DNA of 64,000 nt from an uncultured bacterium (GTDB taxonomy: Bacteria; Zixibacteria; MSB-5A5; JAABVY01; JAHJOQ01): assembly GCA_965369655.1 (NCBI GenBank), contig CBDUQR010000008.1, positions 1 to 64,000 of the forward strand, in the 5' to 3' direction. The notes beneath the pieces are model-generated. The model did not search any database. It was not told the origin of the DNA and saw nothing but the letters and a program-made list of their open reading frames with translations. Every line of letters starts with the position of its first letter. Positions within the stretch are counted from its first letter, which is position 1. This document shows positions 2,563 to 5,470 of this stretch, piece by piece. The position numbers were made by a program, and so were the translations under genes.

Positions 2563-2802
2563 CAAAAACTCCTTTCAACTCTACTATTGATCCGACGAGA
2601 GAGTACCGCTTAATGTTGTCTATCAGTGATGCTCCTCGTTGGACTCTTAGGCTGAATGCCTCACGCTGCGGTTTTTCGCAAAATGTGAATTGGTTCACAA
2701 ATTCCTCCGCAACGTTTCCGTTAATTTGAGTACAATTTTATACTCTTTCAATGAGAAAGTCAACCATTATTTGGGTAGTGGGTCAGTTTGAAACTCGACT
2801 AC

Positions 2803-3000
2803 TCAGCTTTTTGGGCCAAGGGGATTCGCATGGCTCAACTCTGATGTTAGATCGGTCCAGATTGTCTTTACATATCCTATCTTTTCGTCATTGCTCATGT
2901 TTCCAAGTTTGGGGTCTGTGTATACAATCTTCCTGTTCGTATCAGAATCGTAATACGTGACGGCCTCGGCACCTGAAACCTTAGGATTCCAACTCATCAT
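2803..3000 (-). CDS. Small hypothetical passenger protein (65 aa)
   Basis: RBS GGGAGG lies just before the ATG; stop is just inside the left TIR; no recognisable domain. Confidence 0.5.
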   Translation of the reverse strand: MMSWNPKVSGAEAVTYYDSDTNRKIVYTDPKLGNMSNDEKIGYVKTIWTDLTSELSHANPLGPKS

Positions 3001-3091
3001 AACCTCCCTAATTCACTCTGATATTTTGGTTGCAATAAGAAAAACATGCGTCTTAAGAAATGTACACTTGGGGCGTGCGAGTGGCAAGCAT

Positions 3092-3937
3092 TTATTGTAG
3101 CTTCGCCTCTCTTTCTTCCAACAATTTCACAATATCCTCAAGATTCCAGAGCTTGTCAGTAACACCAGCTTCCATCGCGGGCGTGACTTTCAACGTTCGA
3201 TGTATCCGAACGAAGTTGTAGTACATGAAGTGGAGGGCTACGGCATGCATGAGGTTCTCGATCTTCTTGCTGAAAGCGTTCGTCAATCTGGTAAACCGGC
3301 GCATGCTCATTCTCATTGTCAGATTCTGTCTTTCAACGTGCGATGTTGAAACCTGATCTTTTTTCGGCTTGCCGGTTACTCTATGTTGGCGACTGCCGAT
3401 ACACTTGGCTGGACTGTGCCGCGTTTCCGCTTCTGGTGCCGATCCGTACAACTTGACCAACATGGCATAGTCGATGTCAGCACCGAAAGCTTGATCTACG
3501 GCTTCGAGATAAGGTCTGTGACCGTCTGTGGTAAGCTGGACTCTGTTAGTAAGGCGACTTGCAACATCGTGCATGAATGCTTTAGCCCATTCCGAATTAC
3601 GAAGACCGACTAACCATGTAACAACAAGTTTAGTATCAGGATCAATAGCTACCCACGTCCAAACGTCGCCAACACCAAACTGATCTTTCATATCATCAGA
3701 GACGTTCTTCTGTTTGGCATAGCAGAATGACCAGATTTCGTCACACTGTATGCGCCTGCAATTGAGGTTGCGAAGAACGCGATCCTGATACTCTGCGCAA
3801 ACTTCGCCTACATCAGCCAAGAGCTTGACTACGGTGTTTTTAGCAACTCCAGTCATGCGGACTGTTGAGCGGATCGAGTTTCCCTCAACCAATGCCGCAA
3901 AGACCTGAACTCTTTTTTCTGTTGTTAGCTTATTCAT
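3092..3937 (-). CDS. IS1-family DDE transposase
   Basis: N-terminal HTH (EGNSIRSTVRMTGVAKNTV); QCDEIWSF, LTTDG and VERQNLTMR...RRFTR motifs. Confidence 0.9.
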   Translation of the reverse strand: MNKLTTEKRVQVFAALVEGNSIRSTVRMTGVAKNTVVKLLADVGEVCAEYQDRVLRNLNCRRIQCDEIWSFCYAKQKNVSDDMKDQFGVGDVWTWVAIDPDTKLVVTWLVGLRNSEWAKAFMHDVASRLTNRVQLTTDGHRPYLEAVDQAFGADIDYAMLVKLYGSAPEAETRHSPAKCIGSRQHRVTGKPKKDQVSTSHVERQNLTMRMSMRRFTRLTNAFSKKIENLMHAVALHFMYYNFVRIHRTLKVTPAMEAGVTDKLWNLEDIVKLLEEREAKLQ

Positions 3938-3945
3938 ACTGACCT

Positions 3946-3974
3946 AATATACGTAAGCGGTCACGCATTGTCAA
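3946..3974 (-). promoter_or_regulatory. Sigma70 promoter of the transposase (leaderless-like)
   Basis: TTGACA-17nt-TATATT, 8 nt before the ATG; no clear SD. Confidence 0.65.
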
Positions 3975-4037
3975 GAGAAAAATGCTTGAGCGGTCAAGAA
4001 AATTATCTTGGCAATCTGCCGATAATAGTGTATATAA

Positions 4038-4109
4038 TGGTGGAGCCGTCGGGAATCGAACCCGATCCGCGCGAGTCCAAAGTCCGCTGGAGTCACCCTG
4101 ACCGGCCCC
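4038..4109 (-). ncRNA. tRNA-like RNA (Ala-type acceptor, degenerate D and anticodon arms, encoded CCA)
   Basis: GGGGCCG/CGGCTCC acceptor with G3-U70, discriminator A, CCA; T arm TCGGG-TTCGATT-CCCGA; loop CTTTGGA. Confidence 0.65.
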
Positions 4110-4115
4110 ATCTTC

Positions 4116-4153
4116 GGCTCAGACAAGCGTACGTGGCCTGTCTGAGCCTTTTT
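4116..4153 (+). terminator. Terminator-like hairpin inside the IS
   Basis: GGCTCAGACA/TGTCTGAGCC stem followed by TTTTT on the plus strand. Confidence 0.55.
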
Positions 4154-4319
4154 CTATATCTCTATACACCAGAAGGGTCGATTTCCCTTCTGAGAATGGG
4201 TAATGGTGGCGGACGAATCCGCCTAAGAAGTAATAATATAATTTTACTTGACAAGAACCTTGCAGATATGCTTCCTTGCATTCGTAGCCTCCATGACGTT
4301 AGTGGAGTTATTGATTATT

Positions 4320-4348
4320 AGCCGGTGTTCGCTGCACCGGCTTTTCTT
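4320..4348. terminator. Hairpin just downstream of the HARE-HTH gene
   Basis: AGCCGGTG/CACCGGCT stem; T-tract on the plus strand. Confidence 0.5.
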
Positions 4349-4790
4349 ATTTCTTCAACCTATACGTCCTCGGTCCTACTTTTTCAAATACATCAGGCTC
4401 ACGCTGAATACTGGACTCAACGGAATTCTTAGGGCTGTCTGTCCTGAACTCGTATCCACCAGCTTTGAGTCCCGCAACAACTTCATTCAGATGTAGAGGT
4501 CTTTGCGCTATAGACAATACGATCTTGCAAGCCTCGACAATCGTCTTATCCTTGAGCCGACCATCCAGAGATACGTCGCGCTTTTTGGGGAACATTTGAT
4601 TCTGCAACATATGATGAATTCCGCTGAAGTGGCCTTTCATCTTGTGAATCTCTTGTTTTTCCTTCTCTAACTGATTGATTTCAGTTTCAATCTCACGTAA
4701 TCTCTGGTCATACCCCTTCAATCTCTGTTCGAGGTCTTCAAAGTCTATCGCGTCCAGCGCGTCATAAAGGCTATCATATGGGTCTGTCAT
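4347..4790 (-). CDS. Coiled-coil plus winged-HTH (HARE-HTH-like) passenger protein
   Basis: RBS AGGAGG; heptad-like N-terminal half; C-terminal TIVEACKIVL...PLHLNEVV...SPKNSVES...FEKVGPRTYRL. Promoter TTGACG-17-TATTGT at 4814-4842. Confidence 0.75.
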   Translation of the reverse strand: MTDPYDSLYDALDAIDFEDLEQRLKGYDQRLREIETEINQLEKEKQEIHKMKGHFSGIHHMLQNQMFPKKRDVSLDGRLKDKTIVEACKIVLSIAQRPLHLNEVVAGLKAGGYEFRTDSPKNSVESSIQREPDVFEKVGPRTYRLKK

Positions 4791-4885
4791 AAGTCCTCCT
4801 GTCAATCAAAGGTACAATAACAGATTGTTGAATTCACGTCAAGTAAAATGTGTAACAATAATTGGGCTGTTGTACAATAGTGGAA

Positions 4886-5167
4886 TTAGTCGTCTTCGGA
4901 TTGGTCGGCTTTCTTCCTCCAACGCGCATTAGCCGCCCTACGTGCGGCTTCTGAGCGTTCTTTAGGGGTCATTCTTGCAGCTCGTGCCTTACCGCCTTTC
5001 AACCCTCCGCGTCGTCCGAGAGCTACGGCAGCAGGGTCTTTACCTGAATTTTCTGGTGGGGATTCTGGTTCTTCTGGCGGGGATTCGTCAGTTGCCTGTT
5101 CGACAATACTGTGAGCCAGTTCGTTAATATCTGGCCGCTTTTTCTTCTTGCTTGATCGGTCACGCAT
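4886..5167 (-). CDS. Small basic KGG-motif protein (putative nucleic-acid binding)
   Basis: KDPAAVALGRRGGLKGGKARAARMTPKERSEAARRAANARW. Start placed at the ATG at 5167, 6 nt after a TTGACA-16-TACCTT promoter. Confidence 0.8.
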   Translation of the reverse strand: MRDRSSKKKKRPDINELAHSIVEQATDESPPEEPESPPENSGKDPAAVALGRRGGLKGGKARAARMTPKERSEAARRAANARWRKKADQSEDD

Positions 5168-5470
5168 ACCATCAAGGTACAAGTCCCGATCAGAATGTCA
5201 AGAAGAATCGCTGTCAGGAAAATTCAAACTGACCCACTACCATTATTTGACATTAGCTGTCCACCGGCGGTGAGAGGAAACATACATCTTCGTCCTCTGC
5301 GGCGTTTCCGCGAATAGATCATATTCCAGCTTGACTTACATTCCGTGATCGCTGCACGATTCCGTGACAACTATCTTCTTTCAGTTGGCGCGATTCTCAT
5401 CACAGATACGACAGTCACCTCTTGTGAATTACTGGCGAATCATTATCTTTGCGCCGATGGATTTGATATC

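Follow-up and report, generated by a model that had tools for sequence, protein, structure and literature searches.

Between the divergent genes for citrate synthase (gltA) and MutS2 on a contig of an uncultured zixibacterium lies a short insertion in which a transposase gene is accompanied by several genes of other kinds. The locus raises the question of what sort of mobile element this is and whether its additional genes are chance hitch-hikers or the cargo of an organized lineage. We analysed the 64,000-nt stretch that contains it (contig CBDUQR010000008.1 of assembly GCA_965369655.1, positions 1 to 64,000; hereafter the window) together with relatives of the element in bacterial genomes and viral contigs. 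Our results indicate that the element is an intact, recently inserted transporter insertion sequence (IS), that is, an IS with passenger genes, belonging to a large and widespread branch of the IS1 family, a reading to which we assign a probability of about 0.8. Its interest lies mostly in a tRNA-like RNA that it encodes and in the targeting of the lineage.

The element and its site of insertion

The element spans 2,468 bp (positions 2774–5241), and all of its contents, four open reading frames (ORFs) and one RNA, lie on the minus strand. The sequence GGTAGTGGGTCAGTTTGAA at positions 2774–2792, starting with GGTAGTG, forms one terminal inverted repeat, that of the transposase-distal end (IRR when the element is read in its own direction), and its exact reverse complement at positions 5223–5241 forms the other (IRL), next to the gene for a small protein that we call KGG. 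The two repeats match at 19 of 19 positions and were the longest inverted pair that an inverted-repeat search found within positions 2600–5400. The 8-bp sequence ATTATTTG directly flanks both ends, at 2766–2773 on the gltA side and at 5242–5249 on the mutS2 side, as an exact target-site duplication. The neighbouring genes encode citrate synthase (Pfam E = 4e-91) and, at the opposite end, MutS2/Smr.

We also found the empty site. In a genome of the same genus (G001), the homologous flank is followed by a single ATTATTTG and then by the mutS2 side. Contigs were available from three metagenome DNA runs of one marine-sediment study, one of which may be the source of the window itself; one contig of run X3 joined left-flank-like letters straight to position 5242, and other contigs of runs X2 and X3 bridged the occupied junctions. 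Judged against the age of the genus, the insertion is a recent one. A preliminary description of this DNA had read perfect 19-bp inverted repeats and an exact 8-bp duplication as a recent insertion between divergent gltA and mutS2, and had proposed looking in relatives for an empty site with one copy of ATTATTTG; the ends, the duplication and the empty site in G001 bear this out. Its estimate that the transposase occupies about one third of the element was accurate (846 of 2,468 bp, 34%), as was its view of the remainder as co-oriented cargo; the promoters that it gave this cargo are predicted from consensus matches. Besides this single full copy, the host assembly (G000; 2.99 Mb in 100 contigs) contained a decayed fragment, located on contig C60. 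The fragment (C60:12867–13056; L002) retains the 3′ end of a transposase gene, with 85% DNA identity over 134 nt, and two end-like 19-mers that are 57 bp apart.

The transposase (281 amino acids; positions 3092–3937, minus strand) is encoded by a single ORF, and its residues D66, D138 and E202 were invariant in a 20-sequence alignment. Its best NCBIfam family match was transpos_IS1 (NF033558; E = 1.3e-15, 57.9 bits, curated cut-off 100), and it scored 23.5 bits against Pfam DDE_Tnp_IS1 (cut-off 24.1). Homologues with 55–63% identity (Mesorhizobium, Acidiphilium and Hoeflea plasmids) are named 'IS1 family transposase' by PGAP. The ends of the element fit the pattern GGnnnTG, and its 8-bp duplication falls within the range of 8–9 bp, both as tabulated by ISfinder for IS1 (PMC10425158, Table 8). 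The earlier assignment to the IS1 family thus stands with regard to the ends, the duplication and the PGAP labels of homologues, and is qualified by transposase scores below the curated cut-offs.

Like IS1 of Escherichia coli, the element combines GGnnnTG ends and an 8-bp duplication with a DDE transposase that matches IS1 models best, and it encodes a small protein of about 90 amino acids just inside IRL, the place of insA in IS1. Unlike IS1, it is 2,468 bp rather than 740–1,180 bp long; its transposase is one ORF behind its own putative promoter, without a frameshift fusion; its small protein had no detected similarity to any Pfam or NCBIfam family; and it has cargo slots, tRNA-like RNAs and a bias towards −35 boxes, as well as scores under the curated IS1 cut-offs. 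The length and the single transposase ORF rule out the classical IS1 group, which is defined by 740–1,180 bp and two frameshift-joined ORFs, and not the IS1 family. Single-ORF and passenger-carrying subgroups of IS1 are known; ISfinder has a passenger-carrying subgroup (ISMhu11), and no paper under the name ISMhu11 was found in the literature that we searched.

A backbone with variable cargo

Three components without a role in transposition lie inside the inverted repeats of the window element: a gene for a HARE-HTH protein, the tRNA-like RNA and a small ORF. The element is therefore of a known kind, an IS1-family element with passengers or transporter IS, described as an IS derivative with passenger genes (PMC7986276, PMC9330008).

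A scan of species-representative genomes returned at least 585 relatives of the transposase, from Zixibacteria (up to 73% identity), Acidobacteriota, Nitrospirota, Planctomycetota, Verrucomicrobiota, Chloroflexota, Desulfobacterota-type metagenome-assembled genomes and others. For boundary analysis we kept 80 genome loci and accepted as an end the same 19-mer with at most four mismatches. In 61 of the 80 loci a pair of such 19-mers flanked the transposase homologue, and 53 of these 61 had an exact 8-bp duplication; among the remaining eight, two duplications had one mismatch, one was 9 bp long, one locus was at a contig end and four had no match. The bounded relatives ranged from 2,103 to 7,090 bp. 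IMG/VR viral contigs contributed 247 further transposase relatives, and of the 80 viral loci that we kept, 66 had both ends and 39 had exact duplications.

The gene for the KGG protein recurred throughout this set. Its profile matched 60 of the 62 bounded elements, and in 52 of the 62 the gene was co-oriented and started less than 450 nt from IRL, the end far from the transposase. At one locus (L074) only 76 nt separate the KGG gene from the transposase, which looks like a cargo-free form. We scanned the cargo of the 62 elements as 148 ORFs of at least 85 amino acids, after 10 shorter ORFs had been dropped. P63C proteins were found in 10 elements, SDH-type ClpP-like proteases in 7, and XRE-HTH paired with Peptidase_M78 proteins in 6. 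Predicted toxin–antitoxin cargo included Gp49/HigB-like proteins with HTH partners, YhaV with Phd, PemK, SocA/Panacea and PIN proteins, and predicted restriction–modification cargo included NotI or EcoRV with D12 methylases, N6_N4 methylases and an MmeI-like enzyme. STAND/AAA NTPases, AAA_21, NYN, RelA_SpoT and Bro-N proteins and nested ISs were also present. Cargo occurred on both sides of the transposase, before it and after it.

The preliminary description had envisaged a two-gene backbone of KGG protein and transposase around a variable slot, possibly serving as a vehicle for defence or regulatory modules, and had suggested mining genomes for this linkage. The linkage recurred within bounded relatives from many phyla, and the catalogued genes between the backbone genes vary and are rich in defence and regulatory types. 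The variable cargo of the 62 elements therefore supports a two-gene backbone with a variable defence or regulatory slot. Elements of this lineage have the order IRL, KGG gene, first cargo slot, optional tRNA or tRNA-like RNA, transposase, optional second cargo slot and IRR, and the transposase would bind the 19-bp ends and insert by way of an 8-bp staggered cut.

As in transporter ISs, passenger genes inside the inverted repeats are mobile with the IS. In the present lineage, by contrast with those elements, the cargo has fixed places between the two conserved backbone genes, and its exchange spans hundreds of relatives from many phyla. Tn7-like transposons are also carriers of defence cargo (PMC8649781), with a similar dominance of defence, toxin–antitoxin and restriction–modification genes and with 'safe' insertion sites. 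The present elements differ from Tn7-like transposons in having an unrelated transposase, a far smaller size, one transposase gene and no TnsABC-type target selectors. A conserved small protein, fixed slots, an alanine-type tRNA-like RNA and a promoter-proximal bias are undescribed in the literature that we searched, a comparison that ISfinder entries lie outside.

The KGG gene (positions 4886–5167, minus strand) encodes a basic protein of 93 amino acids, a probable regulator, whose invariant residues in our alignment (A2) fall within the motif GRxGGLKGGKARA...AA.ARW. Its 3,099 database clusters are all named hypothetical or 'histone H1'; an Atlas search likewise returned only 'histone H1 family' or 'hypothetical', and a Mesorhizobium record labels a homologue 'histone H1'. 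A search of Pfam, which includes the KGG repeat (PF10685), matched no family at E values up to 0.1. The small basic protein of the preliminary description is thus present, and its name is merely descriptive because it matched no Pfam family, Pfam KGG included. An AF2 model contained four helices (pLDDT 72, pTM 0.30), and a fold search found no look-alike in the PDB. Prediction of a complex between KGG and the transposase scored 0.00, which gives no verdict and counts neither way. P63C cargo ORFs in eight elements (L025, L037, L057, L063, L065, L067, L076 and L082) matched the KGG profile with E values from 1e-10 to 2e-6, and three of these elements (L057, L063 and L065) had no separate KGG gene. 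The match of P63C proteins to the profile suggests that the KGG motif may be a portable DNA-binding module.

A tRNA-like RNA and a bias towards promoters

The element encodes a 72-nt RNA (positions 4038–4109, minus strand) that resembles the tRNA-like domain of transfer-messenger RNA (tmRNA). Its 7-bp acceptor stem contains G3·U70 and is accompanied by A73 and by a CCA that the DNA encodes; the T arm is canonical, a D stem is absent, and the loop CUUUGGA closes a long stem. Its score against the Rfam tmRNA model (RF00023) was 40.8 bits (E = 3e-14), against a gathering score of 47; the match, from 4109 to 4038, covers both ends of the model, and 23 nt replace 322 model positions. The RNA has the alanine identity (G3·U70) of the tmRNA tRNA-like domain, and it shares its acceptor stem, base for base, with the host tRNA-Ala(GGC). 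It departs from a tRNA cloverleaf, as its consensus has 9–10 unpaired nucleotides in place of the D arm, and its total length of 72 nt and sub-threshold score set it apart from RNAs with the mRNA-like domain of tmRNA; ARAGORN called neither a tRNA nor a tmRNA from the window RNA. With the tmRNA tRNA-like domain (RF00023) and mascRNA-type RNAs (RF01684) it shares the acceptor stem with G3·U70 and A73, the T arm, a remnant of the D loop that lacks its stem, and an extended helix that replaces the anticodon arm. It differs from them in being 72 nt long, without an mRNA-like frame or pseudoknots, in scoring below both gathering scores and in residing in a transposon. In the host assembly (99.5% complete), neither Rfam above its cut-off nor ARAGORN found a tmRNA gene, which is probably an assembly gap; the best Rfam tmRNA match there was the RNA of the transposon. 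The same assembly encodes SmpB (C38:13673–14098) and had 44 tRNAs called.

The structure of the RNA is conserved. Homologues in four elements (L023, L046, L004 and L026) gave a consensus with compensatory changes in 13 of 20 pairs and a covariance model (R1) that scores the window RNA at 85.9 bits. Searching with this model added two further elements (L007 and L008), 16 of 151 genomes of the phylum, the window's own included, and two viral loci. When the 18 distinct sequences were aligned by fitting them to R1, a procedure that itself favours the structure, 95.5% of cells were paired and 17 of 20 pairs had changed on both sides; none of 500 shuffles reached these values, and slid controls were only 34–57% paired. 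G3·U70 was present in 14 of the 18 members and A73 in 15, whereas acceptor positions 4–7 varied freely with compensation. Conservation extended to the T loop and to the GG in the remnant of the D loop, the 7-nt capping loop followed the pattern N-UUU-(G in 12, A in 4)-(C in 11, G in 6)-A, and CCA was encoded in three members.

tRNA genes proper also occur in these elements. ARAGORN called 14 tRNAs in 13 of the 62 elements, several of them odd (unreadable anticodons, or 'Ser' without a long arm), which corresponds to 14 in 199 kb of element sequence versus 8 in 418 kb of flanks. Counting cases detected by the model alone, 15 of the 62 elements had a tRNA or tRNA-like gene, and in 11 this gene was co-oriented with the transposase and ended approximately 80–180 nt before its ATG. 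The RNA is thus a recurrent option at a fixed place rather than part of the backbone. Five viral copies (L167, L169, L170, L172 and L173) had tRNAs of 84–86 nt with the anticodon UUA ('Stop') about 135 nt upstream of the transposase, and a UUA/UUG theme is common to these anticodons and the loops of the tRNA-like family.

Neither inspection by eye nor a promoter scan gave a convincing promoter for the tRNA-like RNA, which is most likely cut from the cargo transcript by tRNA-processing enzymes. Its charging with alanine is plausible, given the identity elements that it has kept. A search of public runs for transcripts listed no RNA run among the holders of the element, and an Rfam search for the tRNA-like RNA in four other elements with a HARE-HTH gene (L093, L062, L094 and L079) found none. 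Two ideas about its loop were dropped. In this copy, CAA, the cognate codon of the loop UUG, was not enriched among glutamine codons (3 of 11 in the transposase, 1 of 2 in KGG and 3 of 8 in the HARE-HTH gene, versus a host share of 0.21), and pairing of the loop with the start of the transposase mRNA or with the ends extended over only 4–5 nt.

The RNA lies within 409 nt of non-coding sequence that fold more stably than shuffled sequences (z = −4.9). The rest of this block (positions 4110–4346, minus strand) contains a 13-bp hairpin directly 5′ of the RNA (4116–4148), further hairpins at 4164–4187, 4289–4307 and 4320–4342, and a minihelix with ACCA at 4204–4223; the inverted-repeat search also placed a repeat (I6) in this block. 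Those at 4289–4307 and 4320–4342 scored as terminator-like on the plus strand, and the one at 4116–4148 has a plus-strand T run. At 4116–4155 and 4320–4352, hairpin and T run lie antisense to all genes of the element. The T runs follow the hairpins on the plus strand, so these look like terminators facing into the element. The corresponding hairpins of L046, L004 and L026 have the same polarity.

We examined target choice at 53 independent sites with exact duplications, the window included, oriented by the transposase. Counted from the first base of the duplication, positions 15–19 had the consensus T, T, G, n, C, with the four specified bases found in 34, 36, 34 and 33 of the 53 sites, respectively, and 13 sites had exact TTGAC there. 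A weaker mirror signal, GnCAA, lay on its opposite side (C in 26 of 53 sites, A in 26 and A in 30). TTGAC with at most one mismatch lay exactly 7 bp outside the duplication in 31 of the 53 sites, versus 1.4% at control offsets; 23 of these 31 sites had it on the transposase-distal side and 11 on the other, 3 of them on both. Among the 34 such boxes, 18 were accompanied by TAnnnT at a spacing of 16–18 bp, versus 4.4% in controls. The lineage thus tends to land just upstream of σ70-type promoters. The TTGAC could be read by KGG, by the transposase or by promoter-bound RNA polymerase. In the window, a gltA promoter-like site (TTGACT-17-TAAAAT; positions 2735–2763, minus strand) was found by the promoter scan and is kept in the empty G001 locus. 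Landing a few base pairs upstream of a −35 box, here 2 bp from that of gltA, would spare the host gene. At L094 (8454–8662) a TTGAC box separates the right end of the element from a SAM riboswitch (68.3 bits) some 75 nt downstream, an example of promoter-proximal landing. Host tRNA genes lie near several insertions, such as a tRNA-Thr gene 63 nt past the end of L027 (right flank 63–138), which fits insertion upstream of promoters.

Both backbone genes have promoter-like sites of the same type. That of KGG, read by eye, is TTGACA-16-TACCTT and ends 6 nt before the ATG; its control region (positions 5151–5201, minus strand) comprises a −35 box at 5201–5196, a −10 box at 5179–5174, the ATG at 5167–5165 and an operator-like TGACCGATCAAG at 5162–5151, inside the first KGG codons. 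The transposase control region (3933–3998, minus strand) starts with the palindrome CTTGACCGCTCAAG (3998–3985), followed by the −35 box TTGACA (3974–3969), TGACCGCTTACG (3963–3952), the −10 box TATATT (3951–3946) and an end-like site, TATATTAGGTCAGTATGAA (3951–3933). The promoter scan scored this site, TTGACA-17-TATATT, at 11 of 12 consensus positions, and its −10 box ends 8 nt before the ATG. If these predicted promoters are used, both backbone mRNAs would start at or beside the ATG and be leaderless. The end-like site overlaps the transposase ATG and matches the end sequence at 14 of 19 positions; about 16 of the 62 elements have such a site, with at least 11 of 19 matches, at the same offset. 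A 12-nt operator-like motif, TGACCGNTCAAG, has three copies in the window, at 5162–5151, at 3996–3985 within CTTGACCGCTCAAG and at 3963–3952 in the promoter spacer. A strict pattern of this type occurred upstream of the transposase in 15 of the 62 elements and near the KGG end in about 7, and all other strict hits fell near either promoter zone save two on the plus strand (L076 and L101). The perfect palindrome was present in 12 of the 62 elements, versus 16 of 1,542 background windows.

The InsA protein of IS1 is a repressor that binds the ends. By analogy, the KGG and transposase genes, each behind a near-consensus promoter, may be controlled through the shared operator-like motif by KGG in the role of InsA. 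The shared motif at both backbone promoters makes KGG most likely the repressor of the element, and the simplest arrangement would be auto-repression, as for InsA, by the small protein, by the N terminus of the transposase or by both.

Alternative explanations, significance and remaining cargo

Several observations weigh against parts of the picture outlined above. The transposase scores under the curated IS1 cut-offs of both NCBIfam and Pfam, and the element, at 2,468 bp, is 2.1 times as long as the upper IS1 length of ISfinder and lacks the insA/insB frameshift. Among the 15 members of the RNA family from the phylum other than that of the window, 6 have no IS hallmark within 1.5 kb, and with 15 of 62 elements the tRNA or tRNA-like gene falls outside the backbone. 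For KGG, a putative DNA binder, the structural model is weak (pTM 0.30) and has no PDB look-alike, and the strict operator motif precedes the transposase in only 15 of 62 elements, with about 7 having it near the KGG end. Viral sites repeat the target bias more faintly, in that 12 of 36 distinct sites had the box and just 4 of these a −10 box, and in the window itself the −35 box of gltA starts 2 bp rather than 7 bp from the duplication, an offset that it has in common with one other site.

The sub-threshold scores, together with the single ORF, the additional conserved gene and a length of 2.1–7.1 kb, would fit a separate family that shares merely the DDE fold and the end motif with IS1. We consider this distinctly improbable, given that IS1 is the best NCBIfam family match (E = 1.3e-15), that the ends fit GGnnnTG with a duplication of 8 bp and that PGAP labels close homologues IS1. 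Still less probable, in our judgement, is the proposal that the RNA block and the extra ORFs are inert, the RNA being what is left of a decaying tRNA-Ala or tmRNA gene and the ORFs junk acquired by an ordinary IS. The acceptor stem shared with the host tRNA-Ala(GGC), the near-orphan small ORF and the free variation of cargo among relatives speak for it, but compensatory changes preserve the RNA structure in 18 sequences from different genomes, 11 elements have a co-oriented gene at the same place before the transposase, tRNAs are denser in elements than in flanks (14 in 199 kb versus 8 in 418 kb), and the ORFs are intact with ribosome-binding sites.

The roles of KGG and of the RNA admit further alternatives to a repressor and an optional passenger. 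KGG could instead be a target selector or transposition cofactor that reads TTGAC-type half-sites, in the promoters of the element as well as in target DNA, and tethers the transposase beside −35 boxes. TTGA is common to the operator half-site CTTGA(C/G) and the target motif TTGnC, the weaker mirror signal GnCAA lies on the opposite side of the duplication, and KGG is fixed in the backbone; set against this, its binding to DNA is a prediction, promoter-bound host RNA polymerase or the N-terminal HTH of the transposase would explain the bias equally well, and the bias is weaker in viral contigs. We regard this role as somewhat unlikely. The RNA, for its part, might be the functional heart of the cargo, an alanine-charged look-alike of a tRNA or of the tmRNA tRNA-like domain that acts in trans, in ribosome rescue via SmpB, in decoding via its UUG/UUA-type loop or as a decoy for anticodon nucleases, and the HARE-HTH protein may be its partner. 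This would account for the retention of G3·U70 and A73 while acceptor positions 4–7 change with compensation, for the conserved T loop, D-loop-remnant GG and capping-loop pattern, for the best Rfam match being tmRNA, for the UUA anticodons of the viral tRNAs and for the presence of a tRNA or tRNA-like gene in five of the nine elements with a HARE-HTH relative. Decoding tRNAs generally have a purine at position 37, whereas the equivalent position is C in 11 of 18 members; moreover, the D stem is missing, CCA is encoded in just 3 of 18, CAA is not enriched (3 of 11 glutamine codons in the transposase versus 0.21 in the host), and charging and expression are predictions. We hold a function of this kind to be unlikely. 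More doubtful again is the boldest combination, in which the lineage is a self-regulating, promoter-homing cargo platform whose working alanine-charged RNA mimic, with its UUG/UUA-type loop, disturbs translation or ribosome rescue or decoys tRNA-cutting defence nucleases; if true, it would be the first transposon-encoded RNA of such a kind.

If our preferred reading of a transporter IS of the IS1 family is correct, one of the IS families known longest includes a branch, very common among environmental bacteria and their phages, that resembles a miniature cargo transposon, with a fixed regulator gene and slots that shuttle defence, toxin–antitoxin and restriction–modification genes across phyla, and that favours spots just upstream of promoters, where it does little harm. 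This would bear on how small defence modules spread. It is also relevant to annotation, because the small gene is now called 'hypothetical' or 'histone H1' and the cargo goes unrecognized. The tRNA-like RNA with its alanine identity is a well-defined, testable structured RNA.

Two protein-coding genes complete the cargo of this copy. The first (positions 4347–4790, minus strand), preceded by a GGAGG ribosome-binding site and a predicted promoter at 4842–4814, encodes 147 amino acids, beginning with a coiled coil and ending in a HARE-HTH-like winged helix. It scored 23.9 bits against Pfam HARE-HTH (PF05066; cut-off 25.9). A word-based homologue search returned only the protein itself, and its relatives came solely from an iterative profile, which tied it to ORFs in eight other elements; one of these, in L055, is above the Pfam cut-off with 29.1 bits. 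The window protein also scored 0.91 with Atlas clusters that are 99% HARE-HTH. The second gene is a small ORF of 64–65 amino acids (positions 2803–3000, minus strand) in the second cargo slot, downstream of the transposase, with a GGGAGG ribosome-binding site. It matched no Pfam, NCBIfam, PHROG or PADLOC family, and a word-based search found it alone. Among 1.84 billion representatives, this near-orphan had one relative, of 63 amino acids and 52% identity, and it also gave two weak partial matches to proteins of 877 and 765 amino acids (E = 7e-6 and 5e-5, respectively).

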